This document shows, in pieces, positions 2,362 to 60,920 of a stretch of 64,000 nucleotides of DNA (position 1 is the stretch's first letter; each line of letters starts with the position of its first letter). The notes below the pieces were generated by a model. That model ran no database searches. It worked only from the letters and a program-made list of their open reading frames with translations, and was not told where the DNA came from. This stretch comes from Bacillota bacterium (GTDB lineage: Bacteria; Bacillota; Clostridia; Acetivibrionales; DTU013), in assembly GCA_023409735.1 (NCBI GenBank), contig JAEYRB010000007.1, positions 20,376 to 84,375 of the forward strand, given 5' to 3'. A program made the translations under genes and the position numbers.

Positions 2362-3294
2362 TTATAGCTCGAAAACTTCGCCATTATAATTTGTTACGAT
2401 GACCTTGAAGCTATATTCCGGATAACTATTTTTTTCCATAGGTGCTCCCGTTGTCGCATGAGGTATCTTGATCATATAGCTCCCCGTTTCTATTCCCTTT
2501 TCATCAACAAAAGTAGGACCATACTCAGCTTCCGGAACGTCTGACGATATATTAGTCTCGCCTGAGGCAATCATTACATTAATCCTATCTCTGGTCTTTG
2601 CATTAGCTATATTAAGGTCTGTTACATCCTTTGAAAATACCTCTTTGTCTTCCAAGAAGGCCTTAATTACAACACTTTTTATTTTTAAGGCTGCCTGACC
2701 GAAGGTCATGTTATTAATTACAACAGAATAATTAGTTCCTTCCGCTCCACTTTCTGTACCGTTCTCCATCATTCTTATTCTATTCTCATAGTCATTCTTC
2801 ATATTGCCGGAATAAAAATCCGTATTGAGTTTTTTTCGGCTTCTATCAGCTGATTCCTGATATACATTGAAGATATAATTATATTTATAGGGAAGTGTAA
2901 GCTCGCAAGTATAATTTAGGCCATTTTCAGATATGCACTCGATATCAGTTGCTTCTGTGTTGTTTTCATCAGTCGCATTAAGGTAAACTCTTGACCCGCT
3001 GTCCGCCTGTTTAAGTGTTAATTTAACCAATGCTTTTATCGACTTGGTTTCAGTATCTATGCCCGTATAGGTTAGGCTAAAATCGGTAACCAAATTATTC
3101 TGCTGGTTTAAAAGCCACTCTACTCTGTCTGAAATAGAGTTGCTTAAATTGTTCATGTCAGACCTGGCTATTGAAATATCAGCTTTTAAAGCACTGATTT
3201 CTTCCTTAAATTTAACATTTTGGTAAAAAATCAGTATAGCAATAGCTACAATTCCAATAATAATAGTATTATACTTCCATCGGTATTCCTGCAT
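2362..3294 (-). CDS. Membrane-anchored hypothetical protein
   Basis: Single N-terminal TM segment (IIIGIVAIAILIFY) and a short coiled coil. The rest is unrecognised. Confidence 0.6.
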   Translation of the reverse strand: MQEYRWKYNTIIIGIVAIAILIFYQNVKFKEEISALKADISIARSDMNNLSNSISDRVEWLLNQQNNLVTDFSLTYTGIDTETKSIKALVKLTLKQADSGSRVYLNATDENNTEATDIECISENGLNYTCELTLPYKYNYIFNVYQESADRSRKKLNTDFYSGNMKNDYENRIRMMENGTESGAEGTNYSVVINNMTFGQAALKIKSVVIKAFLEDKEVFSKDVTDLNIANAKTRDRINVMIASGETNISSDVPEAEYGPTFVDEKGIETGSYMIKIPHATTGAPMEKNSYPEYSFKVIVTNYNGEVFEL

Positions 3295-19961: not shown

Positions 19962-20810
19962 CTATTTCTCCAACAGGCTATTATAAACCTCTCTTTTGCT
20001 TATACCCCTATCACCGGCTACCCTCTTGAGAGCTTCCTTTCTATCCATACCCTTGTCAGTATAATATTTTAAATGTTCTTCAAGGCTTATTTCATTCCAG
20101 CTTGTAATTTTAGCTTCCTCTACAGCCTCCTGATCTTCACCTTCGAGAACAAGAACATATTCTCCCTTTGGCGCTTGAGCCTCGTATTTTTCTATGGCCT
20201 CGTCAAGGGTACACCTTATGACCTCTTCATGGATCTTCGTGAGTTCCCTGGCCATAGAAATTCGTCTGTTTCCCATTACCTCTCTTAAATCTCTCAGCGT
20301 ATGTATGAGTTTGTGAGGAGCTTCATAAAAGACTAGAGTCCTTGTGTCATTCTTAATTGATCTGAGTCTTTCCATCCTAACCCTTTTATTCACAGGAAGA
20401 AAACCTTCAAAGCTGAATCTTCCTGACGGCAGCCCTGACAACACCACACCCGTAATGACTGCGGCAGGCCCCGGGAGCATGGTAACAGTAATGCCTTCCT
20501 TTGCAGCTAACTTGACAAGGTCTTCTCCGGGATCGGAAATTCCCGGGCAGCCTGCATCTGAAACAAGAGCGATATTCTTACCCCCAAGGAGCTCCTGAAT
20601 CAGCTGAGATCCCTTTTCACTTTTATTGTGTTCATGATAGCTGACCAATGTATTTTTTATTTCAAAACGATTTAGCAGCTTAATAGTCTGTCTAGTATCT
20701 TCAGCGGCGATAATGTCGACCTCTTTTAAAGCCCTCAGAGCTCGCAGAGTTATATCCTCAAGGTTTCCAATGGGGGTAGCTACTAAATAAAGCGTTCCTT
20801 TTTCACTCAA
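19962..20810 (-). CDS. rsmI: 16S rRNA (cytidine1402-2'-O)-methyltransferase
   Basis: GTLYLVATPIGNLEDITLRALRALKEVDIIAAEDTR is the tetrapyrrole-methylase-fold RsmI signature. Syntenic with B. subtilis yabC. Confidence 0.9.
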   Translation of the reverse strand: MSEKGTLYLVATPIGNLEDITLRALRALKEVDIIAAEDTRQTIKLLNRFEIKNTLVSYHEHNKSEKGSQLIQELLGGKNIALVSDAGCPGISDPGEDLVKLAAKEGITVTMLPGPAAVITGVVLSGLPSGRFSFEGFLPVNKRVRMERLRSIKNDTRTLVFYEAPHKLIHTLRDLREVMGNRRISMARELTKIHEEVIRCTLDEAIEKYEAQAPKGEYVLVLEGEDQEAVEEAKITSWNEISLEEHLKYYTDKGMDRKEALKRVAGDRGISKREVYNSLLEK

Positions 20811-32408: not shown

Positions 32409-32453
32409 TCATTTTCCTCCATAAAATTCAGGCTTTCATTTATTTCAAGCCTT

Positions 32454-33314
32454 TTAGTGAAGTCTTAGAACGCTTCTTGAAGCCATATCAAAACCATAAC
32501 CGGAAGGTAATACATGAAGAGTAATATTGGCAATGGCTAAAAGCTCATCAGGTTTAAGCTCAGAGACATTTGAACTTTTAATGTTTCTTCCGTCAACAAT
32601 GGTTACAGAGTTGCTGCCTAATACTGCAAAATGATTATCCGGATGGATTCTTATCGCAGTATCCTCATCAATTCCTACACCGAGTATTGACGGGTTTTCT
32701 GCTACCCCGCATAACAACCTTCCTATTCTGCCGCGTTGATCAAAATGCTGATCTATCAACACTGAGTCCAGCAAGCCAAGCCCGGGAGCCATTTTCAAGG
32801 TACATTTCCTCGCAGGCTCATTATTATTGCCGTCTACGACCATTGTACCGCTCATTACAGATGCTCCTGCGCTGGTTCCCGCAATAACTGTGCCATTCTC
32901 AAATGCTCTGTATAGCGCATCAAAAACCCTAGTTCCACCAAGTATACTTGTTATTCTTAACTGGTCGCCTCCTGTGAAAAAAATACCTGTTGCTTCAGAG
33001 GTATATTTTGTATTGTTTTCGTTATTCGCATCATCCCTTGAATTAATATTAAGAATATTAATGCTGTTGATTCCAAATCTTGCAAACACGGACTTATATT
33101 GGTCTCCAACCCCTTCAGGATCCTCAGTCGCACTGGTTATTATTACAAGACGGGCTTGTGATAGACCTGAAAGCTCCACAAATTCATTCAAAATTCTACA
33201 TTCTCCCGTCTTGTCCTCTGCTCCGCCAATAATTATCAGATTTCCCTTGCTCATATTATTTACCATCTCTATCATATAATTTTCTGCTCTAAACAAAGGT
33301 ACATTAAAGCTCAC
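32454..33314 (-). CDS. cphB: Cyanophycinase (peptidase S51)
   Basis: LIIIGGAEDK, FFTGGDQ and the nucleophile motif GTSAGASVM. The start is uncertain: GTG 33314 or one of the ATGs at 33275, 33266 or 33254, none with a strong SD. Confidence 0.85.
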   Translation of the reverse strand: MSFNVPLFRAENYMIEMVNNMSKGNLIIIGGAEDKTGECRILNEFVELSGLSQARLVIITSATEDPEGVGDQYKSVFARFGINSINILNINSRDDANNENNTKYTSEATGIFFTGGDQLRITSILGGTRVFDALYRAFENGTVIAGTSAGASVMSGTMVVDGNNNEPARKCTLKMAPGLGLLDSVLIDQHFDQRGRIGRLLCGVAENPSILGVGIDEDTAIRIHPDNHFAVLGSNSVTIVDGRNIKSSNVSELKPDELLAIANITLHVLPSGYGFDMASRSVLRLH

Positions 33315-45919: not shown

Positions 45920-46153
45920 CTATTCCATATCATCTAGATCGATCGTATCAAGCAGCTTTTTTAGTTCCTCTACTTCTCCCTTGTTAAGTGTCACACCCTT
46001 CCCCATTTTTTCATGAGTTTCGTCCCAATCCCTGATATCCAGTTTAGGTTTCCTGTCATTCCAGCTTACAAGGTTTACCTCTTTCTTCCACCCCTTTGTT
46101 CCTTCACCGATGATTCCAATAGATTTTGTTATTTCATACTTAAGCTCTGCCAT
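45920..46153 (-). CDS. YdbC-like / PC4 (p15 coactivator fold) single-stranded nucleic-acid-binding family protein
   Basis: GWKKEVNLVSWNDRKPKLDIRDWDETHEKMGKGVTL matches the bacterial YdbC/PC4-like pattern. GGAGG lies 7 nt before the ATG at 46153. Confidence 0.6.
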   Translation of the reverse strand: MAELKYEITKSIGIIGEGTKGWKKEVNLVSWNDRKPKLDIRDWDETHEKMGKGVTLNKGEVEELKKLLDTIDLDDME

Positions 46154-46451: not shown

Positions 46452-47396
46452 TTATTCTTGCTCGGGAATACCTGCAAGCTCTATTTTCCCATTATATTTT
46501 ACATATGCTAAAAAAACAGCTTCCTTTTCCGTGACCTCAAATGATATGTATTGCGGTTTAACTAATTCCTTCTTTTCTTCGCGCTTGCCGTCTTCTCCTA
46601 TAATTCCTGCCACTCTAATGGCTTTAAGGACCTTTGTTTCTGTGAAGCTCATATATTCTTCCATTGCAGACTCTTTCACAGATGAATTACCGTTTGGTGT
46701 ATCTCCCGAGGGTGCCCGCCTAGACTCCAATCCTCCCGATGATTCAGAGTTAGCTGTAGTTTTTCCCGTAGATACCAATCCGACTTCAGCTATTTCAGAA
46801 GATATGGGATTTACTCCTTCCTCTCCTTTATATTGTGACAGATCTGCCGGATTGGCTGCTGCATCTCCTGCATATATTGGGCTAGCTGCTTTTCCTACAT
46901 CAGATGCCGGAATTTCTTCCGCTGCTCTGTTATTTGCATCCAATGTATATATACACCCCTGTTGCTCGCTACTATTTGGAATGCAGATCAGGTCAACAAG
47001 CTGTCCTTCTTCCAGCTGCCAGCCATTAGTCTGATCAGTTTCAAATCTTATCGAAAACAGTCTGTTACTTTTATCCGCTACTTCAATAACGTCACTTTCC
47101 CCGTTTTGAAGCTTAGCCTTCAGCATCATCTCACCAGCTTCAATTTTCATGGCGGACACTTTTGCCTCTGCCTCTTCAATGCTTCTGACAGTTCCCTGCG
47201 TCACCAGGTCTGAGGCAATTTCTCTAATCTCCAGCATATCCCTTGTTATCATATTGCCCTCATCGATACTTACTTTGGCAAATACAACTTCCTCCCTGGT
47301 TTCATAGTTGGCAGCTTTACTAATAATCATGAGCTCAATTACTAAAACAATCACAGTAATAGTAGCAGTTCCGATAATCCAACCAAGCCTTTTCAT
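46452..47396 (-). CDS. CpaB/RcpC-like Flp pilus assembly protein (SAF domain) with a long low-complexity insertion
   Basis: An N-terminal TM anchor, then a SAF-type segment (VVFAKVSIDEGNMITRDMLEIREI...GTVRSIEEAEAKVSAMKIEAGEMMLKAKL). A central A/S/G/E/P-rich stretch of about 95 aa follows. Confidence 0.65.
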   Translation of the reverse strand: MKRLGWIIGTATITVIVLVIELMIISKAANYETREEVVFAKVSIDEGNMITRDMLEIREIASDLVTQGTVRSIEEAEAKVSAMKIEAGEMMLKAKLQNGESDVIEVADKSNRLFSIRFETDQTNGWQLEEGQLVDLICIPNSSEQQGCIYTLDANNRAAEEIPASDVGKAASPIYAGDAAANPADLSQYKGEEGVNPISSEIAEVGLVSTGKTTANSESSGGLESRRAPSGDTPNGNSSVKESAMEEYMSFTETKVLKAIRVAGIIGEDGKREEKKELVKPQYISFEVTEKEAVFLAYVKYNGKIELAGIPEQE

Positions 47397-47426
47397 ATCA
47401 TTTCACCAGCATCTCGTAATATAATT

Positions 47427-47954
47427 TTAGTTGTTTAGAGGTATTTCCGAGTCAACGTGCACTTTAACAATAATAGTATCCCGGCCCAGCAGCTTCAAAA
47501 CCACACCCGAGTATAGAGAAGGTTTAATAGGTATACAAATACAGCTATGCACAGACGGTCTTTCTATCAAGGTTTCATCCGGACACCTTGCAGGCAGATC
47601 CTTGCAGTAGATCTCAAGTGAATTGATTATTACCTGTCCTTCGGCGATAGAACCGTCTTTCGGCTTCAACTCCTCATCCAGTCTGAGATTATCTGAAAGC
47701 AGCTCCCTGAATAAACCAAGCATCTCCTCCCGATTGAAGCTTACTGCAACTCTTCCTAAGTTTTCTGCATTTAAAGCATTGTACACAGAAATATTAGCCA
47801 TATCCGCCGCATCCCTGATGATTTTAGCTTTTCCTGTCAATATAAACTTCTCAATCACTACGGAAAACACAGGTAGAATAACAAGCAGAACCATTGCTGC
47901 AGCTATCACTACTGCCGTGACAGCACTGCCCTTTTCGCTGCGGACATGCATCAA
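47427..47954 (-). CDS. TadE/TadG-like pseudopilin
   Basis: The N-terminus RSEKGSAVTAVVIAAAMVLLVILPVFSVV resembles the TadE signature (ERGSA.VEFAL.LPVLL). 4-nt overlap with the upstream gene. Confidence 0.55.
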   Translation of the reverse strand: MMHVRSEKGSAVTAVVIAAAMVLLVILPVFSVVIEKFILTGKAKIIRDAADMANISVYNALNAENLGRVAVSFNREEMLGLFRELLSDNLRLDEELKPKDGSIAEGQVIINSLEIYCKDLPARCPDETLIERPSVHSCICIPIKPSLYSGVVLKLLGRDTIIVKVHVDSEIPLNN

Positions 47955-48328
47955 TTAACCACCCTTCTTGATATAGCTGTCTTATCATATACCATGCGAA
48001 ATGAGGTATCTTCTCTCTTCATTGGGGAAACAAGCTTGCTGTATGTATAGACTGCCTCAACCCTAAGTGTCAGTTTTCCACCCTGAATAGCATTTTCAGT
48101 AGCAGTAACATTTATATCCGTCAATCCCAATTCCTTAAGCTTGTCACAAAGCTCCTCAGCCCTGTCTTCACTTAGTCCTCCCGCGTTTTCCATCTCAAGC
48201 ATTACTTCTCTGCAGGCCATGTCAAGATCAGCTTTTATTGAAAGAGGCAAAAAGAACTCGATGCAAAAGACAAGAATTGACACCATAAAAATCAGTGCTA
48301 TTGCGAAAACAGCAATCTTAGCCGCCAT
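47951..48328 (-). CDS. DUF4320-like small membrane-anchored Tad-locus protein
   Basis: An N-terminal TM helix followed by SIKADLDMACREVMLEMENAGGLS. The architecture and position are typical of the DUF4320 proteins of Firmicute Tad loci (from memory). Confidence 0.5.
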   Translation of the reverse strand: MAAKIAVFAIALIFMVSILVFCIEFFLPLSIKADLDMACREVMLEMENAGGLSEDRAEELCDKLKELGLTDINVTATENAIQGGKLTLRVEAVYTYSKLVSPMKREDTSFRMVYDKTAISRRVVN

Positions 48329-48339
48329 AGCTTATTCCT

Positions 48340-48645
48340 CTAGCTCACGCCTGTTTTGAAGAGACTATTTTTCACGGTAGTTGTCCACCAAGAAGACAGC
48401 CCTTCCATAATGGTCTTTGAGAAACTACTCAACTGCGGTATAACAATAAAGGCTGCAATAATAAGTGTAGCTGCAATACCTAAAATTTCATTCATACCAA
48501 ACCCATCCTGCCGGGATAACCTCACTTTTAACCTTGAACAGCACTGCTTAATATGGATTGATGCCTCACCTTTAAGCGAATAATAATGTCCTGCCTTTAG
48601 ATTTACAAAATTGATCAGCCTGTTTTTCACTCTAATCCCTCCCAT
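48340..48645 (-). CDS. Flp-type (type IVb/c) pilin candidate; true start uncertain
   Basis: ...RQDG/FGMNEILGIAATLIIAAFIVIP fits the Flp G/XXXXE(Y/I) processing motif followed by a hydrophobic helix. The mature part would be about 50 aa. The ORF has an unusually long 48-aa leader if translated from ATG 48645. In-frame GTG alternatives exist: codon 6, preceded by GGGAGGG, and the GTG of ...KVRLSRQDG. Confidence 0.55.
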   Translation of the reverse strand: MGGIRVKNRLINFVNLKAGHYYSLKGEASIHIKQCCSRLKVRLSRQDGFGMNEILGIAATLIIAAFIVIPQLSSFSKTIMEGLSSWWTTTVKNSLFKTGVS

Positions 48646-48648
48646 TTA

Positions 48649-49554
48649 TTAATTTATAAAAATCTTACCAATAGCCTCGCTCACATCGTTTATCATCGGT
48701 ACTATTATCATCACCGAGATAACAGCCACAAATACCGCAACCGCCGCCACACTTCTGTTCCTGCAGCTATCTGTTTCAGCCTGTACATAGTTAAAATACT
48801 TTTTAAACATCATATCCTCCTGCCGTGCTAATAGCTCCTTATTGTCACCTGTTTCGATGCCCTGCTTAAGAGCAAGGCAAAGCGTATCCGCCTCATGGGC
48901 GTCAAAGTTGGACCTGAATTCCTCTAAGGCCGAGTCTATATCAAGTGTAAGCTCGTATCTGGCAGCAAGCCTTATAAGTATAGCCTTCAGCTCGTAATCT
49001 TCAACCACCTCATATACCGAGCAGACCGCATCTGTAGGCTTAACGCCGGAGGAGATCTGGTTATATAAATATTTATATATTTTGTATATGTGTTTCTGAA
49101 ATCTCATATTGAAGCTGCGCCTTTTTGAGGCCAATAACAATTCCATTGATGAATTTATAAGCATCGCTGACGCCACAGGCCTGATAACATCAGGATAATT
49201 AATTATGAATGTAAGAATAAAAACGATCGGTGTAGCAGCAAACCTTACCCCAAGGTATACTAGTGCTGCATATTCACCTTTATAGCCTGCCTTCTTCACC
49301 CTACTTCTTGCTCTTATATAGATGCTGCCCTTTTCAAAGCGTCTTCCCCAGGCTGACATACCGGCAGCCGCAAGTCTTCTGCACCTAAAATAAAGCGATA
49401 AGCCGGTGCTCCTTGAGCCAAGCGCCTCTGTAACTCTTCCTGATGACGGAATATACAGAAGCCTTATGATACATATCCCTAATATTATATCAGCCGCACA
49501 TATCACCACAAAAAGCACTGTGCTTTTATTAAAAATTATTAGCATAAATTCCAT
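48649..49554 (-). CDS. TadC-like type II secretion system F-family membrane protein
   Basis: Polytopic membrane protein with one T2SSF-like helical cytoplasmic domain (LDIDSALEEFRSNFDAHEADTLCLALKQGIETGDNKELL) and a C-terminal TM. Positioned after the TadB-like gene. Confidence 0.7.
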   Translation of the reverse strand: MEFMLIIFNKSTVLFVVICAADIILGICIIRLLYIPSSGRVTEALGSRSTGLSLYFRCRRLAAAGMSAWGRRFEKGSIYIRARSRVKKAGYKGEYAALVYLGVRFAATPIVFILTFIINYPDVIRPVASAMLINSSMELLLASKRRSFNMRFQKHIYKIYKYLYNQISSGVKPTDAVCSVYEVVEDYELKAILIRLAARYELTLDIDSALEEFRSNFDAHEADTLCLALKQGIETGDNKELLARQEDMMFKKYFNYVQAETDSCRNRSVAAVAVFVAVISVMIIVPMINDVSEAIGKIFIN

Positions 49555-49571
49555 AGCTCTACTTCCTGCTT

Positions 49572-50576
49572 TCAGTATTTAAATCTGGTAATACCAATTG
49601 TGAGATAGAAGCCTAAAGCATACATACCGCAAAATATCATAAGCAGCAGCTTTCCCACCAGGGTACCCATATAAAACGCCTCAATTTTAGGCGCAGACCT
49701 GATAAACAAATAAGCTACAATAATAACGCCAAACATTACAAGGTATATGGTCATCCTATCCTTATAGGTTGAAATTCTACGCCTGTTATACTCTTCATCA
49801 ATCTTATAAAACTGTTCCTCAAGATTTGTCAGGAGTTTAATTATATCGCCTCTGTTTTTGATACTCTGCTTTACATTTATTATGAAATCTCCAAACTGAG
49901 GGTTATCTACCTTAAGCTGCAGCATGTCCAGAGCATCTGAGGTATCCATACCTCTGTTAACTTGTACAACCATATCTCTGATAAATGTGTGCAGCGGTTC
50001 ACCAATACCGGAATCCAGCGATTTTTCAAATGCATATATTATGTCTTCCTTAACTGAGCACCACCTGTTCAGTACAGAAATGTATTCAGAAAGCATTTTT
50101 CTGACAACATCTGCATTATATCTTGAAAGCAGGTCAAGGACGAATATCGGTATCAAAGAAACCACAGCGCTTATTAGCATGGATGACGGAATAAAACCAA
50201 GAATGCTGTTAATCGGCTTAAAGGATATTATAAAGATAATAAACATTATTATAATAAGAACATGAGCATTCATAAATGGTACATAGTGCCTGATATTTGA
50301 CTTCTCTATATACATTATCTCTATCTTCTCCAAAAGCTTCAGCTTCTTAAGCTTGGACAAGCGGGAAATATCCATCATTTTCAGCTTTTTATCATTGGAG
50401 GTCCAGTATTTCCTGAGCCACGAAGACAGCTGCAGGATATCCTTTTTTATATCAAGTTTTCCGGTGATGGCTAATGCAAGTGCCACATTACAGATCACCA
50501 GCAATATGGAGTTAAGTATCAGCAGCACCGTTTTCACCCTTCCCTTCCGATCAACCTTACATTGATCTTTTCTCAT
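49572..50576 (-). CDS. TadB-like type II secretion system F-family membrane protein
   Basis: TM-rich, with a T2SSF-like domain (GEPLHTFIRDMVVQVNRGMDTSDALDML...DFIINVKQSIKNRGDI). Positioned after the CpaF gene. Confidence 0.7.
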   Translation of the reverse strand: MRKDQCKVDRKGRVKTVLLILNSILLVICNVALALAITGKLDIKKDILQLSSWLRKYWTSNDKKLKMMDISRLSKLKKLKLLEKIEIMYIEKSNIRHYVPFMNAHVLIIIMFIIFIISFKPINSILGFIPSSMLISAVVSLIPIFVLDLLSRYNADVVRKMLSEYISVLNRWCSVKEDIIYAFEKSLDSGIGEPLHTFIRDMVVQVNRGMDTSDALDMLQLKVDNPQFGDFIINVKQSIKNRGDIIKLLTNLEEQFYKIDEEYNRRRISTYKDRMTIYLVMFGVIIVAYLFIRSAPKIEAFYMGTLVGKLLLMIFCGMYALGFYLTIGITRFKY

Positions 50577-50609
50577 GTCTCTTGCGATTATTTAGTCTAA
50601 CTCACAACC

Positions 50610-51812
50610 TTATACTAAACTCATCTGATCTGCTTCAGAAAACAGTCTTGTATACTCAAACCTGTCTTCAGCACTGTTAAAACCGCTTACCTTCAGAACA
50701 TCCACAACTTTAAAATCCTTTAAATACAAAATATAGTTAATGCTTCTTCCCAATATAGTTTTTATAGTATTTTCACTTTCAGATATATTTGCTCCCTTGC
50801 TTAGGGTAAGAAGTCTCAAGAGTGCATCCTCAGCACTTTCAGAATGAGTCGTGGCGATACTTCTGTGACCCGAATAAGCTGCCTTAACAAATTCCCATGC
50901 CTCATCTCCTGTTATCTCTCCTACACAATAAGTATCTAGTGACATTGTTAGTCCATCTCTGACCAGGTCCTTTAATGTGACCGGCCTGCCGCCTTCATTT
51001 TGCTTCTTAAGCTTCTGCTCTATACAGTAGGGCTTGTCCGGGAATATCTCTGCATCTGACTCTGCTATGAGAACTCTCTCCATCTCAGGTAATACATTCA
51101 CAAATGCTCTGAGTAAGGTTGTCTTTCCGGCCGCTCCCTTTCCACAGAAAAGGATAGATGAATCGCTCTCAGCGAGCCTTTTTAGAAGAAGCACATGTTC
51201 GTCCTGCAGCATACCTAGCCTTTGCAGATCTTCAAGAGTATAACTATTTCTTCTATGTTTTCGTATACTGATTGCAGAGCCGGTAATATTCCTCGGTTTT
51301 ATTGAAACGTTTATTCTAAGCCTGTACTTTTCATCAGTTACCCTGCAGTGACTGTCGTTTTCATTTAGTATTCCGCCATTTCTTACGGCTACCAGCTTAC
51401 AGTAGGTATCGAAAATTTTTTCACTGCCGAAATTTACAGGTATCTTACTCCGTACTCCATGCCTCTTTATAACAAACTGATTAAATCTAGTTCCATCTAT
51501 GTCTGTAATATCATCCTCCTCAATATACCTTTGAAGCTCACCATAACCAAACATGAAGTCAAATACCTTGCGTATCAGTTCATCTCTATAAACGCCACAG
51601 TGATACTTGTGAATATCTATATCCTTTATCACTGCTATTTCTAATGCAGATTTATCACTTCGGCCTCCTGCTACATCTGCCACTAGCTCCGGCCATTCCT
51701 TAAGTATGTCCTTGGTTATGTCTGAAACCACTATATTAGTCTCCGCTTCAACCTTTTCAGCTGGGTTACCTTCCTCATAAAAAAGCGTATGATGGGATTT
51801 TACAACCGGCAT
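50610..51812 (-). CDS. CpaF/TadA family pilus assembly ATPase
   Basis: Walker A CGKGAAGKTT, Asp box, Walker B YCVGEITGDEA and His box SGHRSIATTHS. Three consecutive ATGs (51818, 51815, 51812) follow GAGGAGG; the third has the best spacing. Confidence 0.85.
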   Translation of the reverse strand: MPVVKSHHTLFYEEGNPAEKVEAETNIVVSDITKDILKEWPELVADVAGGRSDKSALEIAVIKDIDIHKYHCGVYRDELIRKVFDFMFGYGELQRYIEEDDITDIDGTRFNQFVIKRHGVRSKIPVNFGSEKIFDTYCKLVAVRNGGILNENDSHCRVTDEKYRLRINVSIKPRNITGSAISIRKHRRNSYTLEDLQRLGMLQDEHVLLLKRLAESDSSILFCGKGAAGKTTLLRAFVNVLPEMERVLIAESDAEIFPDKPYCIEQKLKKQNEGGRPVTLKDLVRDGLTMSLDTYCVGEITGDEAWEFVKAAYSGHRSIATTHSESAEDALLRLLTLSKGANISESENTIKTILGRSINYILYLKDFKVVDVLKVSGFNSAEDRFEYTRLFSEADQMSLV

Positions 51813-51825
51813 CATCATTCCTCCT

Positions 51826-53517
51826 CTACCTTGCAGCAAGCTGCCTGATCATCTTAAGGTGTCCACCTGTGCCCCTAAGTTTGTGCATCAAGCCGAGATC
51901 AGACAATATTCCGATGCCCTTGAGTACCCGATAATATTCGGCCAGCATTTCTTTTTCGATATGTAATACATAAGTATCCTTTTTGTTTCTGCATTCAGAA
52001 CGTTTACGACTAAATGATATTCTTCCTATAAAATTTCCCTGTGTCGCCTCTACAGCTTCACTGGCAGAAATGTCATTTTCCCTGTCGTATTCAAAGAAAA
52101 CGAATTTGGTCGCTGAAAGAGGCAGGTTTTGCTTCTCCTTCAAAAATGCTATATAAGAGTTAAATTCACGAAGCAACACTATATCACCCTTGATTGCTGC
52201 AATATTAATATCTGATCTAAGCAGTGCAGCAAGTGTAAAGGCATCGTATATAGATCTATTTACAAGAAGGATTGTTATATCAAATAGGCGGTAGCATTTA
52301 TCTATAAGCTTTGGGACACTATCTTCGGTATAATATTCGTAATTGTCCAAGCGATAGCTACCTGTCAATATATGCAGATTCTTTAGCTCCTTACGTGAAA
52401 CTGAAGATTGAAGCAGCAGCTCTTTAGTAAGAGAGGCTTTACCAATGGCGCTCATAACAATATCCAGTCCTGAATGACCAAGAATTTCAGTATGCATGTT
52501 TTTCGATGGATATTTTTTAACATTAAGGATAATGTCTGCCTTAGGTGCCAAAAGATCCAAGTCCGCCAGTAGCACCTCGCTATTTGTAAATTTTGCGATT
52601 AAATATGCAAGCTCGCACCCAAATTCAGCGTTATCCCAGATAGTTATCACTGCTTTTTTAACGCTCATTGCCCCTGTAAGTACAGGCGGATATTCTTTAT
52701 TTATATTGCTTTCTGAACTATCTCCATGCACATTAGCTGCCTCATAAAGAGGAGTTAATGCAGCAAGCAGCTCTGAAGCACTCTGGTAACGCTCCGATGG
52801 ATTTTCTTTTGTGCATTTGATTATTATTTGCTCAAATTCCGCTGAAAGCATTCTATCATAATATCCAACCGGCTTAAAACCATCCAACAATTCGGCAGGC
52901 TTCTTCCCTGTAACAAGATGATGCAGCGTAGCACCAAGGCTATATATGTCCGAAGCAGCACTTGTCTGTCCGGTGCCATATTGCTCCGGCGCCGCATAGC
53001 CACGTGTACCTATGTACACGGTGTCCGTATCTGATAAAGGTTTATATTCTCTCGCTATTCCAAAGTCGATAAGCTTAAGAGTGCCTCTTTCTGTAAGTAT
53101 TATATTTGAGGGCTTAATATCTCTGTAGATTATAGGATTTGGTTTAAGCGTATGAAGGTAATCCAGGGCTCTACACAACTGAACTGCCCAGTCGATAGCA
53201 AGCTCTTCCTCAATTTTACCCTCGGCTTCAAGTTTTTTATCCAAAGCTATCCCATTAATATAATCTGATATTATAAACATCTTGTCTTCAGTTTCCAGGA
53301 TATCGAACAATCTTGGAAGCGCAGGATGCTCCAGTCTTTTCAGCAGGGTGGGTTCTGCAAGAAGATCAACTCCACTTGCTCCGTCTTTATTTATCTCCTT
53401 AATAGCCCAATAGGTATCTGTATTAATATTTCTCGCAAGGTATACGGTACCCATTCCTCCACGGCCAAGTTCGCGCTCGATGATGTACCTGCCATCGAAA
53501 AAATCACCAATCTGCAT
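51826..53517 (-). CDS. Fusion protein: N-terminal Hanks-type Ser/Thr protein kinase plus C-terminal TadZ/CpaE-like (ParA/MinD-fold) domain with degenerate P-loop
   Basis: Kinase motifs: G-loop LGRGGMGTVY, AIKEI lysine, YRDIKPSNIIL catalytic loop, DFGIAR, GYAAPE. No TM segment. Residues ~285-563 follow the MinD/ParA strand-helix pattern (VITIW-DNAEFGCELAYLIA / VLLADLDLL / HILTGS / FDITILLVNRS / INIAAIKGD), but KGGxGK(T/S) is replaced by DNAEFGCE. Confidence 0.8.
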   Translation of the reverse strand: MQIGDFFDGRYIIERELGRGGMGTVYLARNINTDTYWAIKEINKDGASGVDLLAEPTLLKRLEHPALPRLFDILETEDKMFIISDYINGIALDKKLEAEGKIEEELAIDWAVQLCRALDYLHTLKPNPIIYRDIKPSNIILTERGTLKLIDFGIAREYKPLSDTDTVYIGTRGYAAPEQYGTGQTSAASDIYSLGATLHHLVTGKKPAELLDGFKPVGYYDRMLSAEFEQIIIKCTKENPSERYQSASELLAALTPLYEAANVHGDSSESNINKEYPPVLTGAMSVKKAVITIWDNAEFGCELAYLIAKFTNSEVLLADLDLLAPKADIILNVKKYPSKNMHTEILGHSGLDIVMSAIGKASLTKELLLQSSVSRKELKNLHILTGSYRLDNYEYYTEDSVPKLIDKCYRLFDITILLVNRSIYDAFTLAALLRSDINIAAIKGDIVLLREFNSYIAFLKEKQNLPLSATKFVFFEYDRENDISASEAVEATQGNFIGRISFSRKRSECRNKKDTYVLHIEKEMLAEYYRVLKGIGILSDLGLMHKLRGTGGHLKMIRQLAAR

Positions 53518-55881: not shown

Positions 55882-56373
55882 CTACTTTTTCTTATCTATA
55901 AAATAGGACGGAACGCTCGTTTGAATTGGTTTATATGCCAGATTAGCTCTTTTGTTCTGATTAATCTTCCTAATCTCTGCTCCAAAATGATTTAATAGAT
56001 TATTGCTTTTTTCGCCATTAGCCTTCTCTAATACAACTATGCTGTTGACGATATCCATAACTTCTGCAGTTATACTTTTGAGTTTTCCGGCACCTTCCGC
56101 AGAACTGATATCAAGCTTTGTCATGTCCAGTTCACTCAGCTTTGATACACCCAAGGCAGACTTGAGTCTGGCAAAATATATTTCAAATTCACCATCAAGC
56201 TCAATAAGCTGATCGATTTTAAGCTGTTTTTCATCAATAAGATTTTTAAGTCTATCCAATGAATCCTCTGCAATTGTATCGGTCTGAGCTTTAGTTATGG
56301 CTAATATCTCCATAAGTATATTCTTCTTGGTTAACTGAAGCTCATTCAACCTGGAAAAATATTTTTCGGTCAT
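55882..56373 (-). CDS. Flagellar-locus helical protein, FlgN/FliT-like putative export chaperone
   Basis: All-helical 163 aa, located immediately downstream of fliS (3-nt gap). No strong motif, so the call is positional. Confidence 0.45.
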   Translation of the reverse strand: MTEKYFSRLNELQLTKKNILMEILAITKAQTDTIAEDSLDRLKNLIDEKQLKIDQLIELDGEFEIYFARLKSALGVSKLSELDMTKLDISSAEGAGKLKSITAEVMDIVNSIVVLEKANGEKSNNLLNHFGAEIRKINQNKRANLAYKPIQTSVPSYFIDKKK

Positions 56374-56376
56374 TTC

Positions 56377-56781
56377 CTACTCCTCTTTGATAAGACGTGG
56401 CTGCTGTGGATGTTTTGCAAGTTTCATTGCCTGAGCCCAGGTATCTCTTAACTCCTTTGATATTCCAAGAACTTCTTCAAGTATTTGCAGATCTTTCTTA
56501 ACGTTGGCATCCACAAGCCTTCTGAAAATATATTCATATAACTGGTCAAGCCCTTCTGATACCTCATACTTCATATCTAGTGTTTTGCGAAAGTTTAGTA
56601 TAATATTCTGTGCTTTAATAATTGAGTTTGATGCCTTTTCAATACTTTTGTCATTAATACTATATTGTGCTTGCATAATAAACTTCACCAATCCATTATA
56701 CAACATTAATGTAAGTTCTTCAGGAGTTGATGTATAGATAGAATTTTGCTTATACTGGTCATATGCCTTATTTACTGCCAT
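56377..56781 (-). CDS. fliS: Flagellar export chaperone FliS
   Basis: Y.QN.I.T.TPEELTLMLY.G..KF...A is the canonical FliS N-terminus. 134 aa. Confidence 0.9.
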   Translation of the reverse strand: MAVNKAYDQYKQNSIYTSTPEELTLMLYNGLVKFIMQAQYSINDKSIEKASNSIIKAQNIILNFRKTLDMKYEVSEGLDQLYEYIFRRLVDANVKKDLQILEEVLGISKELRDTWAQAMKLAKHPQQPRLIKEE

Positions 56782-56824
56782 TAGTCATTCCTCCAAAAAG
56801 TTAATCTAAAGAGAGCTTTTCACA

Positions 56825-58735
56825 TCAGGATTGCCCGCTGAACATCGAGGTTATGTATGAACTTTGGGAATTCATTTGGTTAATATACGTTTCTAGGTTC
56901 GTAAACTTGGAATAGTAATATTGTTCTTTATTATTGAGCTTAGTGATCAGCTCCTTAATATCATCCTCATAATCGTCTATTTGATCAAACAATGTGTTTT
57001 CATACTGAGTTGTATCTCCCTCCATGCCTGCTTTTTGAAGAAGTATACCTTTTCCGTTGGTTGTCCTGATGTAATCCTCAAGTATGTCTGATATCCTGTT
57101 ACCAAGTCCCTCTGTACTGTATCGCTCTCTTCTCTGTGCAGTTGTAGTACACTCAGTATATGATAGATTTGATTTCTTTGTAAATAATTCAGCTACATTG
57201 TCAGGGTCTGATTGTATAGCTGCCTTCAGCTTGTTTTCGTCAATAATCAGCTTTCCTTTGTCGGTATATACACTTGTGGTAATCCCTATTGATGTTAGAT
57301 CCTTGGATATACCGGTTATAGAGTCCGAAAGGGCCGTTCTCATACTATACAGCATTTCCTGGAGCATTGAATCATGACGAAGAAGTCCTGTTTTGGCTTT
57401 TTCCTCCCATTTTTTGACCTCATCCTCAGAAAGCTCCTCCTTCTGTTCATCAGTAAGAGGCGCAAAATCACGATCATATTTTTCACTGATAGTAGTGTTT
57501 ATCTCATCTATAAGCTTGTTATAGTCGTCAACAAAAGCTTTTATGTTATTAAATACCGAATCTGTATCCGTTGTAAGTGAAACTGTTTCACTCTGGTTTA
57601 CAGGATCAGTATGCGCCTTGTTCAATGTATATATAGTATTGTTCACCGTAAATGAATTGGTACTTCTTGTAACAAGGACTCCGTCAATCATAGCTGAAGC
57701 GTCTTTGCCTTCTTCATAATTATTCATATTAAGTCCAAAGGTATTGATAAAATCAATATCACCCTGTGTTGTACCAAAGACGATATTGCTTCCCGCACCG
57801 GTTTGCTTAGAAGTTAGCAGGAATCTGTCCGATGTTTCATCATATCTCATGTTTACGTTAGCTGTCTTATCTGAATTGATCGTATTCATCATACTTGATA
57901 AGGATGTATCAACACTGAAAGTAAATTTTTTTGAATTGATAGTAAATGAAACATTACCATCTTCATCAAACTTAAGATCAGAGGCAAAACTACTTGCAAG
58001 ATATCCGAGCGGCCTTGCCGTGTTAAGCCTGTTTGATGCCCCAATACCAAAGCCAAGAGATGTCAAGGCACCGCTTTGATCGGCATTCGACAGGGTTATC
58101 CTTCCTGCACCTCCTGTAGCTTCAAATGACAGATTATCTGTACTCACATCAAAACTCACGGAGATCTTTCCTGCGCCGAAGGCTTTATCTACTAAATCCT
58201 GCAGGCCGGTGCCCTGCTTGTTAACAATTTCATCCGTACCGGCAGTGTAATTATCAAGAACTATTTCCTTTGTCACTCCATCTAATGTTAGTGCAATTTT
58301 TTGTCCAGATAAGCTGAAATTTAATACTTTCCCCTGCAATGCATCGGTCACACCGGCAGTACCTTTGATCTTAGCTTCAGTTGCAAGGCTAATAACTGAT
58401 ACAGTATGTGAACCTACAGCTGAATCTGCATTGCCGGATATAGTAACATAGCTGTCATTAGTAGAGGAACCCAAGAACTTCTTAAAGCTTGATTTTGAGG
58501 TAACATTACTAGCCATATTAGTAGTATTAAAATAGGACGTCTTAAATTTATTAAGCTTACTGATTATGTCTCTATATTCCTCCTGTTTCCATTCAGCCAG
58601 CTGCTTTTTCTGATAAAGCTTATTAAGTGGGACCTTTTCAGCCCTCATTAGCTGTTCTACTATAGAGTCAGTATCCAGGCCGCTTGCAAGGCCTGATAAC
58701 CTTGACATTGAAGTGCTTCTAATTCCTGTCATCAT
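56825..58735 (-). CDS. fliD: Flagellar filament capping protein FliD (HAP2)
   Basis: N-terminal SGLASGLDTDSIVEQLMRAEKVPL and the C-terminal FliD domain (...RFTNLETYINQMNSQSS). Confidence 0.9.
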   Translation of the reverse strand: MMTGIRSTSMSRLSGLASGLDTDSIVEQLMRAEKVPLNKLYQKKQLAEWKQEEYRDIISKLNKFKTSYFNTTNMASNVTSKSSFKKFLGSSTNDSYVTISGNADSAVGSHTVSVISLATEAKIKGTAGVTDALQGKVLNFSLSGQKIALTLDGVTKEIVLDNYTAGTDEIVNKQGTGLQDLVDKAFGAGKISVSFDVSTDNLSFEATGGAGRITLSNADQSGALTSLGFGIGASNRLNTARPLGYLASSFASDLKFDEDGNVSFTINSKKFTFSVDTSLSSMMNTINSDKTANVNMRYDETSDRFLLTSKQTGAGSNIVFGTTQGDIDFINTFGLNMNNYEEGKDASAMIDGVLVTRSTNSFTVNNTIYTLNKAHTDPVNQSETVSLTTDTDSVFNNIKAFVDDYNKLIDEINTTISEKYDRDFAPLTDEQKEELSEDEVKKWEEKAKTGLLRHDSMLQEMLYSMRTALSDSITGISKDLTSIGITTSVYTDKGKLIIDENKLKAAIQSDPDNVAELFTKKSNLSYTECTTTAQRRERYSTEGLGNRISDILEDYIRTTNGKGILLQKAGMEGDTTQYENTLFDQIDDYEDDIKELITKLNNKEQYYYSKFTNLETYINQMNSQSSYITSMFSGQS

Positions 58736-58742
58736 ATATCAT

Positions 58743-59147
58743 TCACCTTCTTTCATCAACTAGGATACCGGCCATTTCCCACATTTTGGCTACCATGTCC
58801 AATATTTTCTCCGGCGGTATCTCGCGTATAACTTCATCTGTTTGCGAATCAATAACCTTTATCATTATCTCTTTTGTTTCCTCATGTATTGAGTACTCGA
58901 ATTTTCTGTTAGAAATGGATAAAGCATCATTGGCACGCTCAATTGCATCAATGACGGCTTTGTCCGAAATTGACAGATTTTTCTTGTCAAATTCCGATTT
59001 CCTTATGTTATCACATGCAGTAGTATTATCTGGCTTATAACCCGGTTTTTCAGTGAAGTTCTTAGCCTGGGTTGAGGTAATATCCTGGTTCACTGATCTT
59101 ATTGCCTGCTGTCCTGTTTTAAGAGCATCCGTGCCCTCTATTCTCAT
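58743..59147 (-). CDS. flaG: Flagellar protein FlaG
   Basis: The C-terminus F.IHEETKEIMIKVID..T.EVIREIPPEKILDM is the FlaG signature. ATG at 59147 with GGAGGTG upstream. Confidence 0.8.
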   Translation of the reverse strand: MRIEGTDALKTGQQAIRSVNQDITSTQAKNFTEKPGYKPDNTTACDNIRKSEFDKKNLSISDKAVIDAIERANDALSISNRKFEYSIHEETKEIMIKVIDSQTDEVIREIPPEKILDMVAKMWEMAGILVDERR

Positions 59148-59260
59148 AAAAGCACCTCCATCCATGAATTTTCCTATATAATAAAATATCTGCCTATACT
59201 GTTGTTGTATTTTAAAGGGAGCCGAGAGCCGTACAAATCAAAGCTCACCCTTCATTATAT

Positions 59261-59287
59261 TTATCGGAATATTTTTTATTTTATTTA
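59261..59287 (-). promoter_or_regulatory. SigD (sigma-28)-type promoter for flaG-fliD-fliS
   Basis: The minus strand reads TAAA-N15-TCCGATAA, against the consensus TAAA-N15-GCCGATAT. About 115 nt upstream of the flaG start. Confidence 0.55.
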
Positions 59288-59380
59288 ATCAAATAATTTA
59301 CAAAAGTAAAAATTAGAATTCATCCTGCAGCGACTACAAGATTCTTTGCTTAATATATCATTGGTTACATTCTAACGATA

Positions 59381-59416
59381 TTGAAGAAAAGGCCGGAGGT
59401 TGTCCCTCCGGCCTTT
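59381..59416 (-). terminator. Rho-independent terminator of fliC
   Basis: AAAGGCCGGAGG-ttgtc-CCTCCGGCCTTT, a 12-bp perfect stem followed on the minus strand by TTTTCTTC. 26 nt after the fliC stop. Confidence 0.85.
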
Positions 59417-59441
59417 AAAACTGCATATTTTTGAACTACTA

Positions 59442-60836
59442 TTATTGTAACAGCTGAAGAACTCCCTGAGGCTGCTGATTTGCCTGTGCAAGCATTGCAG
59501 TAGCTGCCTGAGTGAGGATGTTGTTCTTTGTGTAGTTCATCATTTCCTTAGCCATATCAACGTCACGAATACGAGACTCAGCAGCAGTAAGGTTTTCAGA
59601 TGAAGTACCCAGGTTATTAATAGTGTGTTCGAGTCTGTTCTGGTAAGCACCGAGCTTTGAACGCTCTGCAGAAACTCTCTTAATAGCGTTATCTACAGTA
59701 GTTATAGCATCTTCAGCGCCTGCCTGGCTTGTGAGATCAAGATTATTTACTCCAAGATCTGACGAAAGCATGCTTGAAATACTGACGCTCATTGTCTGAC
59801 CTTCATTCGCGCCAATATGCATTGTAATATTATTCTTTGTTACCTGAACGCTGTCCTTTGTTCCCGCAGCAGCCTCAGCAGCAGCATCAGTAAGAGTTAC
59901 CATAAGACCAATTGAGTCTCCTGCTGTAGAGGTAAGAGTCTTTCCATTTCCTGTCGCAGCCTGACCGTTTATAGTACCTGCAACATCAACACCTATGTCA
60001 CTTACATCAGCAGCTGTTGTTAGTCCCAATAAACGTGAAGCAGAGTTAGCACCGCCATCTGCTACTGTAATGGATTCGGATGCACCATATCCGTCGGAAT
60101 TCAGTGTAATTGCATTTGTGGTCGCGTCGGCTGATGCAATAATACCAATACCTGCAGTATTTACTGCATTTACAAAATTAGCTACTGTAGCTGCAGCATC
60201 TCCAGCAACAGAATTGAAATTAATTGCAAAACCGTTTATTGATACAGTTTTTGGTGTAGAATCTATAACAGAAGCATCGGTTACTGCAGCACCTGCTATT
60301 GTTGCGCGCTCAGCTGCCGTTGTAGTTTCGATTTCATATGTCCCAGCCTGGATACCATCATTAATAGTAGTAGCTGATTCTACATTTGTGTTTGTACCAT
60401 ACACAACCTTGCTTCCTGCATCGCCGTTGAGGAGCTTCTTAGTGTTGAATTCAGTTGTATTTCCTATTCTGTCGATTTCGGATGTAAGCTGATCAATCTC
60501 CTTCTGGATCTCTGCTCTGTCATCTACTGTATTGGTATCATTTGCAGCCTGAACAGCAAGCTCTCTCATTCTTTGCAGTATGCTGTGAGTCTCACTGAGT
60601 GCGCCTTCAGCTGTCTGGATGAGTGAAATACTGTCCTGAGCATTCGTTGAAGCCTGATCAAGGCCTCTGATCTGGCCTCTCATCTTTTCACTGATTGCAA
60701 GACCTGCTGCGTTGTCGCCTGCACGGTTTATAGCAAGACCTGAAGACAACTTTTCCAGTGATTTGGATGTAGCGCCTGTATTAGCTGATAATTGACGATA
60801 AGTGTTAAGTGATGCGATATTGTGATTAATTCTCAT
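59442..60836 (-). CDS. fliC: Flagellin
   Basis: MRINHNIASLNTYRQL N-terminus and C-terminal ...TQAATAMLAQANQQPQGVLQLLQ, with an A/T/G-rich variable central domain. GGAGG lies 8 nt before the ATG at 60836 (Met20 of the track ORF). Confidence 0.9.
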   Translation of the reverse strand: MRINHNIASLNTYRQLSANTGATSKSLEKLSSGLAINRAGDNAAGLAISEKMRGQIRGLDQASTNAQDSISLIQTAEGALSETHSILQRMRELAVQAANDTNTVDDRAEIQKEIDQLTSEIDRIGNTTEFNTKKLLNGDAGSKVVYGTNTNVESATTINDGIQAGTYEIETTTAAERATIAGAAVTDASVIDSTPKTVSINGFAINFNSVAGDAAATVANFVNAVNTAGIGIIASADATTNAITLNSDGYGASESITVADGGANSASRLLGLTTAADVSDIGVDVAGTINGQAATGNGKTLTSTAGDSIGLMVTLTDAAAEAAAGTKDSVQVTKNNITMHIGANEGQTMSVSISSMLSSDLGVNNLDLTSQAGAEDAITTVDNAIKRVSAERSKLGAYQNRLEHTINNLGTSSENLTAAESRIRDVDMAKEMMNYTKNNILTQAATAMLAQANQQPQGVLQLLQ

Positions 60837-60844
60837 AATAAATA

Positions 60845-60886
60845 CCTCCATGTATTTTTTTATTTTTGGTAGAGCATCCTTGCTCT
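60845..60886 (-). promoter_or_regulatory. Two candidate CsrA binding sites in the fliC 5' leader (hairpin-loop AGGA plus SD GGAGG)
   Basis: On the minus strand, AGAGCA-AGGA-TGCTCT (60886-60871) presents AGGA in a 4-nt loop. A second GGA lies in the Shine-Dalgarno sequence (60849-60845). Confidence 0.55.
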
Positions 60887-60920
60887 CCAACATTTTTTGA
60901 ATCCTATTAAATACTTCTCC

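Follow-up and report, generated by a model that had tools for sequence, protein, structure and literature searches.

The stretch of DNA analysed (the window) comprises 64,000 nucleotides (nt) of a Bacillota bacterium (GTDB lineage Bacteria; Bacillota; Clostridia; Acetivibrionales; DTU013; GenBank assembly GCA_023409735.1, contig JAEYRB010000007.1, forward-strand positions 20,376 to 84,375), and all coordinates below refer to it unless a related locus is named. On its minus strand, between 46452 and 53517, eight open reading frames (ORFs) lie head to tail, in agreement in number, strand and coordinates with a first-pass annotation made from the letters of the window. They probably encode a Tad-type (type IVc) pilus, and the first of them, ORF1, codes for a Ser/Thr protein kinase fused to a ParA/MinD-fold domain at the position of tadZ. 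Each of the eight products, and that of a PC4-like gene downstream, was found as an exact gene product in a public protein collection (nine proteins in all).

Comparative data, and public gene calls that match exactly, refined three start codons. For ORF2 the start is most likely 51812 (MPVVK..., 400 residues), which leaves a 13-nt gap after ORF1 and not a 14-nt overlap. ORF5 starts with GTG at 48630 (96 residues), preceded by the ribosome-binding site (RBS) GGAGGG, and ORF7 starts with ATG at 47951 (174 residues). With these starts the junctions from ORF1 to ORF8 are gaps of 13, 33, 17, 18 and 11 nt, a 1-nt overlap and a gap of 30 nt. The tight packing described in the first-pass annotation, and its 11-nt gap, thus stood; the reported 4-nt overlap of ORF6 and ORF7 was reduced to 1 nt (TGATG), and the reported 3-nt gap after ORF4 became 18 nt. 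Terminator-like sites in the region were about as frequent as in shuffled sequence (7 observed, 6.2 expected), and the consensus promoter and terminator scans did no better than on shuffled sequence. The region upstream of ORF1 is 219 nt long; the RBS GAGGTG precedes the ORF1 ATG at 53517, and a candidate extended −10 element (TGaTATAAT, minus strand, 53608 to 53600) with a weak −35 was read by eye from the sequence and was not reported by the promoter scan. Nothing in these signals argues against a single transcription unit. Scans of the 64 kb with Rfam models and for tRNA genes found nothing, and the G+C content was flat across the window.

ORF1 (51826-53517, 563 residues) is predicted to be cytoplasmic; no hydrophobic segment was found in it or in ORF2, and ORF1 has no transmembrane helix. 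Residues 11-249 form a PknB-type Hanks Ser/Thr kinase domain (Pfam Pkinase, 172 bits, E = 1.9e-50), and the closest solved relatives in a search of PDB sequences were PknB and StkP (1e-31). The catalytic core is complete: Gly-rich loop, K40, E55, Y-R-D133, N138, D151-F-G and A-P-E. All of these motifs were invariant in 120 homologues, together with T166 and T171 of the activation loop, and the kinase looks catalytically intact as judged from its residues. The likeness to PknB/StkP-type kinases therefore lies in the domain itself, its intact motifs and its conserved activation-loop Thr residues. PknB and StkP carry a transmembrane helix and PASTA sensor domains, neither of which is present in ORF1; the ORF1 kinase is instead soluble, tethered to a ParA-like scaffold and encoded within a pilus operon.

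The C-terminal half of ORF1 (51826-52692, residues ~276-563) matched no Pfam or NCBIfam family, and its profile gave chance matches only against PDB sequences (E about 1.7). An AlphaFold2 (AF2) model of this half was of good quality (predicted local distance difference test, pLDDT, 84; predicted TM-score, pTM, 0.83), and Foldseek searches of the PDB with it returned ParA, MinD, Soj and FleN (E 1e-11 to 1e-8, TM-score 0.6-0.68). Relatives of the domain gave weak CbiA/AAA_31 matches. The Walker A loop of MinD is GKGGVGKT. At that position the ORF1 domain has WDNAEFGCE, invariant in the family and part of a longer motif, VWDNAEFGCE(L)AY; the loop has the length of a Walker A motif, with Lys replaced by Cys and Thr by Glu, and contains no Gly-Lys-Ser/Thr. 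The Walker B Asp position appears, from a manual alignment to MinD, to hold an invariant Asn. Because WDNAEFGCE invariably stands in place of Walker A, the domain is probably a pseudo-ATPase that neither binds nor hydrolyses ATP.

TadZ consists of a receiver-like domain and an atypical ParA/MinD ATPase that still binds ATP, and is a polar hub for Tad components (PMC6668835, PMC8467076). With TadZ/CpaE proteins (from Eubacterium rectale and Aggregatibacter) ORF1 shares a ParA/MinD-superfamily domain, a cytoplasmic location and a gene just upstream of tadA/cpaF, in this case ending 13 nt before it; a role as hub or localisation factor is presumed for TadZ/CpaE, and the same is presumed for ORF1. 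Two other features of TadZ are absent. The N-terminal atypical receiver domain is replaced by the Hanks kinase, and the Walker A loop, atypical in TadZ and still able to bind ATP, is unrecognisable as such in ORF1. ORF1 is thus TadZ-like in fold class and position, and fails two of the three features that mark TadZ. The first-pass annotation had called it a kinase-TadZ-like fusion; the fusion to a kinase was borne out, and the TadZ-like half turned out to be a ParA/MinD fold without a recognisable P-loop and not merely an atypical one.

The family of the C-terminal domain is small, with 353 clusters recovered by a profile search of 1.84 billion cluster representatives. Among the best 150 of these 353, the N-terminus was a kinase in 54, another domain of about 140-300 residues in 50, and short or fragmentary in 46. 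Two of the related loci described below (L038 and L044) encode homologues with non-kinase N-termini and the same degenerate loop directly upstream of cpaF. The non-kinase N-termini of ten relatives matched no Pfam family, Response_reg included; an alternating beta/alpha pattern, read by eye, suggests that they are receiver-like, as in TadZ. A phmmer search started from one non-kinase relative (P0123) was of no use and missed the TadZ structure 3FKQ. In a crude neighbour-joining tree of the C-terminal domain the kinase and non-kinase forms were intermingled, requiring about 10 parsimony changes. On the question of a single origin of the kinase fusion, for which it was built, so noisy a tree supports no more than that exchange of the N-terminal module probably took place repeatedly. 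The nearest public variant of ORF1 (P0001) differs from it by at least one residue (Phe or Tyr in ...ATQGN(F/Y)IGR...), and the exact ORF1 protein of the window is recorded on a contig other than that of P0001, so that two near-identical strains have been sampled.

Of the eight products, five (those of ORF1 to ORF4 and of ORF8) were supported by searches of families, solved structures or folds. ORF2 (50610-51812) is a CpaF/TadA-type secretion ATPase, as annotated at first pass: it matched T2SSE with 94.5 bits, its best NCBIfam match was the TadA family, under the cut-off of that model, and its closest solved relative was Caulobacter CpaF (5e-27); VirB11 and the archaeal GspE2 (1e-12) followed at a distance of 15 orders of magnitude, and FlaI was further behind (1e-8). 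ORF3 (49572-50576, 334 residues, about five hydrophobic segments) and ORF4 (48649-49554, 301 residues, about four) are polytopic half-size platform proteins with one T2SSF domain each (28.3 and 36.6 bits), both above the gathering threshold (GA) of PF00482 (25.2 bits), and their proposed identities as separate TadB-like and TadC-like proteins were upheld. ORF8 (46452-47396, 314 residues) is a bitopic CpaB/RcpC-like protein with an N-terminal transmembrane helix, a SAF domain, a low-complexity insert of about 100 residues and an RcpC-like C-terminus. Of the CpaB/SAF label it had been given, the SAF part held (22.1 bits, GA 21); the RcpC score (18.6, GA 28.8) and the TIGR03177 CpaB score (53.1, cut-off 71) were both under the curated cut-offs, and no match to ORF8 was found among PDB sequences. 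Like ORF5, ORF6 and ORF7, ORF8 has exactly one hydrophobic segment, placed N-terminally.

ORF5 (48340-48630) is a predicted prepilin, assigned from its class III signal motif, the alignment of its homologues and the public gene call. In an alignment of stop-to-stop translations from 31 orthologues, conservation started abruptly at (R/D/E/G)-G-F-G-(M/L)-N-E-(L/I)-L-G-I-A-A-A-L-I-I-A-A-F, preceded by basic leaders that varied in sequence and length. Several orthologues have Leu at the Met that was the candidate start in the window, and the coding region therefore extends upstream. Predicted cleavage after the first Gly (G↓FGMNEILGIAA...) gives a mature pilin of 53 residues, of Flp size, in which +1 is Phe and +5 is Glu, as is canonical for type IV prepilins. 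The leader is about 43 residues long in the window and about 17-25 in many relatives; the long form (48487-48630) was also seen in the three closest relatives, whose proteins are likewise of 96 residues. The major pilins of the Flp family (PF04964) carry the motif G/XXXXEY. ORF5 and 31 homologues of it matched no Pfam pilin model; of the motif they keep Gly at −1 and Glu at +5, and position +6 is Leu/Ile and not Tyr.

ORF7 (47427-47951) is a putative minor pilin (pseudopilin). Its leader is 7 residues long in the window (MHVRSEKG↓SAVTA...) and 7-8 residues long in homologues, and across 42 homologues the Gly at −1 was invariant, the Ser at +1 nearly so, and +5 was Asp or Glu in 34, giving the signal KG↓SAVxD/E. 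The signal is followed by VVIAAAMxVFVILPVFS, a stretch which closely resembles the TadE N-terminus. In an AlphaFold model built from 42 sequences (pLDDT 85) a 56-residue N-terminal helix is packed on a four-stranded sheet, the lollipop shape expected of a pilin. Neither ORF7 nor 30 homologues of it matched the TadE model (PF07811). ORF5 and ORF7 of the window matched no Pfam or NCBIfam family at E <= 1, and none of 63 ORF5 or ORF7 homologues matched the Pfam pilin models (Flp, Flp1_like, TadE and others). The ORF7 family comprised 53 clusters in a collection of 5.8 billion proteins, all of them unnamed.

ORF6 (47951-48328, 125 residues) is a small protein with one N-terminal hydrophobic helix. 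It gave a weak match to DUF4320 (PF14208) over residues 14-85 (20.2 bits, E = 6.7e-4), below the curated GA of 25; nothing relevant on DUF4320 was found in the part of the literature covered. Orthologues are kept in 34 loci and begin directly with the hydrophobic helix (MP(V/A)K..VTG..). The profile searches which the first-pass annotation had proposed as a check thus recovered T2SSF, T2SSE and SAF, and none of the pilin families, an outcome that the annotation had named as counting against its own reading and that does so in part. Its Flp-like and TadE-like labels do not hold as Pfam families; what supports them is the class III motifs, the N-terminal helix and the ORF7 model. ORF5 and ORF7 appear pilin-like by mechanism, ORF5 by motif and size, and not as members of the Flp or TadE families. 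The major pilin, the minor pilin and the DUF4320-like protein are three small-protein families of the pilus that current pilin profiles miss, and Tad systems in Clostridia are in consequence probably under-annotated.

Relatives of the operon were collected by searching one genome per species with a profile of the C-terminal half of ORF1, which gave 49 loci. Nearly all came from metagenome-assembled genomes (MAGs) of uncultured Clostridia, labelled Acetivibrionales, Hungateiclostridiaceae, Oscillospiraceae and Clostridiaceae; one was labelled Calditrichales. About 30 of the 49 share the gene order of the window: radical-SAM, kinase-ParA, cpaF, tadB, tadC, pilin, DUF4320-like, ORF7-like, cpaB-like, pc4, araC and leuC. 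In the syntenic loci the ORFs were intact, and the pilus proteins were 40-79% identical, compared with 80-90% for the flanking housekeeping genes. Because gene order and flanking genes are conserved across about 30 species, the operon is a vertically inherited part of the core chromosome and not an island; it evolves faster than its neighbours and stays intact. One MAG (DAOSDD01, isolate AMR_MDS_1840) has three paralogous loci (L041, L045 and L048), of which two have the kinase and the third lacks it, and multiple copies per genome therefore occur.

The first-pass annotation had stressed that the operon has neither a TadV/CpaA prepilin peptidase of the A24 type nor an RcpA secretin. Both absences were confirmed for the locus. 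For the secretin, none was seen among the ~40 window ORFs scanned against Pfam, which did not include every ORF, as expected for a monoderm. The emphasis itself was misplaced, since both absences are ordinary: in bifidobacteria tadV is not part of the tad locus (PMC7979991), and system models allow it to be a "loner" that serves other systems too; Tad systems are present in Clostridia and have lost the secretin repeatedly in monoderms (PMC6668835). A single in-locus A24 match was found among the 49 loci, a 144-residue Peptidase_A24 protein (PF01478, 55.6 bits; L038:15291-15725) encoded between the ORF7-like and cpaB-like genes of a more distant relative, whose hub protein has no kinase domain. 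Its presence inside the operon suggests that the pilins of this family are A24 substrates, and that the clade of the window keeps an A24 peptidase elsewhere in the genome.

Taken with the gene content, gene order and synteny, which bear out the earlier reading of a monoderm Tad/type IVc operon, these results make it likely that the locus is a chromosomal, vertically inherited Tad-type pilus operon of a flagellated, uncultured Clostridia monoderm, with a kinase-ParA protein as its hub. With the Tad/Flp systems of Caulobacter (Cpa), Aggregatibacter (Tad) and Bifidobacterium breve (Tad) it shares a CpaF/TadA ATPase, split TadB and TadC proteins, and a ParA/MinD-type protein encoded directly upstream of the ATPase. 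Also common to them are a SAF protein of the CpaB/RcpC-like kind, a minor pilin whose N-terminus is in the style of TadE, and a very small major pilin, about 50 residues long, that has Glu at +5 and a predicted cleavage site after Gly. The unlinked peptidase is as in bifidobacterial Tad systems and the missing secretin as in other monoderms. It differs from them in its pilins, which match no Flp, Flp1_like or TadE profile and have Phe at +1 and no Tyr at +6; in its hub protein, which carries a kinase and not a receiver-like domain; and in having a cpaB-like gene, absent from Gram-positive tad loci according to Tomich et al. as cited in PMC8467076.

Several observations weigh against this reading. 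TadZ structures (e.g. 3FKQ) were not among the top 50 fold matches of the ORF1 C-terminal domain, and there is no sequence-level link to a solved TadZ, so that the term TadZ-like rests on fold class, gene position and the domain-swapped relatives. With Pfam and NCBIfam models the operon yielded no partner protein with an FHA domain or of the PP2C phosphatase type. No A24 peptidase was found in the 64 kb window by a six-frame scan for G.GD.K, by tblastn with a related TadV or by inspection of ORFs with multiple transmembrane segments. None of ORF5, ORF6 and ORF7 belongs to a curated pilin family, and the ORF7 model had no significant solved match in the PDB by Foldseek. The +5 residue of ORF7 is Ala both in the window and in the closest relative, and a Gly that is nearly invariant in relatives of ORF6 (alignment position 9) is Ala in the window.

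The lack of a sequence-level match to solved TadZ and of an FHA partner in the operon, together with the lost P-loop, would fit a general signalling kinase with a degenerate ParA-like domain that is no part of the pilus, its place beside cpaF being incidental. We regard this as improbable. ORF1 and cpaF are 13 nt apart, and their pairing is kept in all of the 40-plus loci that include the next gene; the family is tiny, and in all 49 loci examined it stands beside a cpaF-type gene where the next gene is in the contig. The pairing also holds where the downstream genes have been replaced (L022, L023 and L026), and in L038 and L044 the same domain stands at the tadZ position with no kinase attached. 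In the three loci with replaced genes (L022:12164-19874, L023:12063-20011 and L026:12086-20183), radical-SAM, kinase-ParA and cpaF precede a filament-like cluster of another make-up and not tadB to cpaB. Its products are a SAF/CpaB-like protein, a second ParA-like protein that lacks a P-loop (MKSLLIGVWSPFHGQTCNTSN...), an ATPase of 600-685 residues with a weak T2SSE match, a membrane protein of 685 residues and those of three pilin-like ORFs, whose hydrophobic helices are N-terminal.

The missing tadV, which one relative has in its operon (L038), the lost Walker A loop and the aberrant residues of ORF6 and ORF7 could also be signs of a decaying or silent remnant, as could an insertion sequence element between tadC and the pilin gene in one relative. 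That the locus is such a remnant is very unlikely. The eight ORFs have stayed intact, both here and in about 30 species, and hold many invariant residues; the degenerate loop WDNAEFGCE does not vary either, a sign of selection and not of decay; and among Gram-positive bacteria it is normal for tadV to be unlinked (PMC7979991, PMC6668835). The inserted element (L036:14325-15752) is a DDE transposase gene (IS240/IS66-like) on the opposite strand, in an operon that is otherwise complete; the insertion may be polar or inactivating.

If the locus is a Tad pilus with a kinase-ParA hub, its parts could act as follows. An A24 peptidase encoded elsewhere would cleave both prepilins behind their conserved Gly, the major one at G↓FGMNE and the minor one at KG↓SAV. 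A CpaF hexamer docked on TadB/TadC would polymerise the 53-residue pilin, with the minor pilin ORF7 as primer. The CpaB-like ORF8 and the DUF4320-like ORF6 may form an envelope-spanning or alignment part, in which the low-complexity spacer of about 100 residues in ORF8 might reach across the thick wall. The ParA-like half of ORF1 would dock on the ATPase or platform as a nucleotide-independent scaffold or localisation module, and the kinase would phosphorylate itself or components of the machine, switching pilus assembly on or off and so taking over the regulatory role of the receiver-like domain in ordinary TadZ.

Tad pili serve adhesion, biofilm formation, surface sensing and predation; DNA uptake by them is known from one actinobacterium, and to our knowledge little is known about how Tad assembly is switched or positioned outside Proteobacteria. 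By analogy, adhesion to surfaces or particles would be the default output. Use of the machine for contact-dependent killing or protein export would find a precedent in the Kil system of Myxococcus, in which Tad-like pili mediate predation (PMC12075869); type IV filament machines are versatile in function, and ORF5 and ORF7 fall in no characterised pilin family. No effector, toxin or immunity gene was recognised in or beside the operon, and with no positive evidence for such a use we give it very little credence.

Ser/Thr phosphorylation that gates the assembly or expression of an envelope nanomachine is a concept that the operon described here would share with two other kinase systems. PpkA-Fha1 (for ppkA, PMC3224232) controls the H1 type VI secretion system of Pseudomonas, and ArnC/ArnD control the archaellum of Sulfolobus. 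Those kinases are separate proteins with FHA-domain partners; the ORF1 kinase is fused to the hub, and the locus encodes neither an FHA nor a phosphatase partner. The pilus machine itself is of a known kind. In the literature covered, which was not exhaustive, no description of kinase-TadZ, kinase-Tad or Hanks-Flp combinations was found, and the kinase-ParA arrangement is confined so far to uncultured Clostridia. The replacement of the TadZ N-terminal domain by a kinase, on a ParA hub without a P-loop, appears to be the distinctive new feature; the WDNAEFGCE loop, the profile-invisible pilus families and the conserved PC4 partner described next also appear new. If the reading is correct, a hub with its own Ser/Thr kinase would be a compact and testable case of eukaryote-like phosphorylation wired into a type IV filament machine, and ORF1 would also be an example from nature of a ParA/MinD ATPase that became a pseudo-ATPase scaffold.

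The PC4/YdbC-like gene noted at first pass about 300 bp downstream was found on the minus strand at 45920-46153, 298 nt after ORF8. Its product (77 residues) is assigned to this small single-stranded-DNA-binding family by a PF02229 match of 44.8 bits (46.1 bits in the L036 orthologue), above the GA of 25. Among kinase-type loci with a complete 3' end, pc4 lies directly 3' of the cpaB-like gene in 26 of 29. In nine loci the gap is 13-60 nt (L041, 13; L031, 16; L043, 17; L007, 28; L020, 34; L015, 36; L040, 37; L036, 55; L037, 58), compared with 298 nt in the window, and a gap of that size fits little more than an RBS, close enough for co-transcription. In L036 pc4 still adjoins the operon, with different genes beyond it (IclR and a sugar-phosphate isomerase-like gene). 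PC4 is thus a conserved 3' neighbour and possibly a ninth operon gene in relatives. In seven loci (L002, L013, L014, L009, L027, L029 and L032) the cpaB-pc4 spacer contains a short GC-rich hairpin (e.g. GACGGC...GCCGTT) that runs into a promoter-like stretch, TTGACA-17-TAAAAC, just upstream of pc4, an element absent from the 298-nt spacer of the window.

The first-pass annotation had raised, as a speculation, a role for the operon in DNA handling. The pilus would then serve DNA uptake (competence-type) or DNA handling, with the PC4-like protein handling the incoming single strand, and the conserved and often close pc4 gene, which stays attached in L036 despite a different downstream backbone, lends this some support. 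Tad/Flp assembly genes (CpaB, CpaE/TadZ) are implicated in natural transformation of Micrococcus luteus (PMC8467076). The whole block from the radical-SAM gene to leuC is syntenic, however, and shared ancestry explains most of the adjacency; pc4 is missing from three kinase-type and all three non-kinase loci, and in the window it lies 298 nt away with a promoter-like site in the spacer. Moreover, the window ORFs scanned included no ComEA, ComEC or DprA, and the function of bacterial PC4-like proteins is not established. A DNA pilus is therefore improbable, and so, to a like degree, is the combined proposal that the hub exchanged a receiver-like domain for a Hanks kinase and its ParA ATPase became a pseudo-enzyme, making a self-contained, phosphorylation-gated pilus switch, and that the product, together with the PC4-like protein, is a kinase-controlled pilus for DNA uptake or handling and not an adhesin. 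The PC4 linkage does offer a cheap hypothesis of DNA handling that can be tested in any cultivable relative.

Elsewhere in the window, ORFs of 233 and 310 residues (752-1453 and 2362-3294) had no Pfam match at E <= 1e-5, and metG, tatD, holB, tmk, coaX, an Opp-type transporter and leuBCD were identified, a gene content in keeping with a place of the operon in the core chromosome. A cyanophycin synthetase gene (880 residues) and an adjacent gene for a cyanophycinase-like S51 peptidase (29766-33314) form a nitrogen-storage polymer pair unrelated to the operon. A late flagellar cluster (flagellin, FlaG, FliD, FliS and FlgN; 55882-60893) lies 2.4 kb upstream of the pilus operon, and the organism is thus probably motile as well as piliated.

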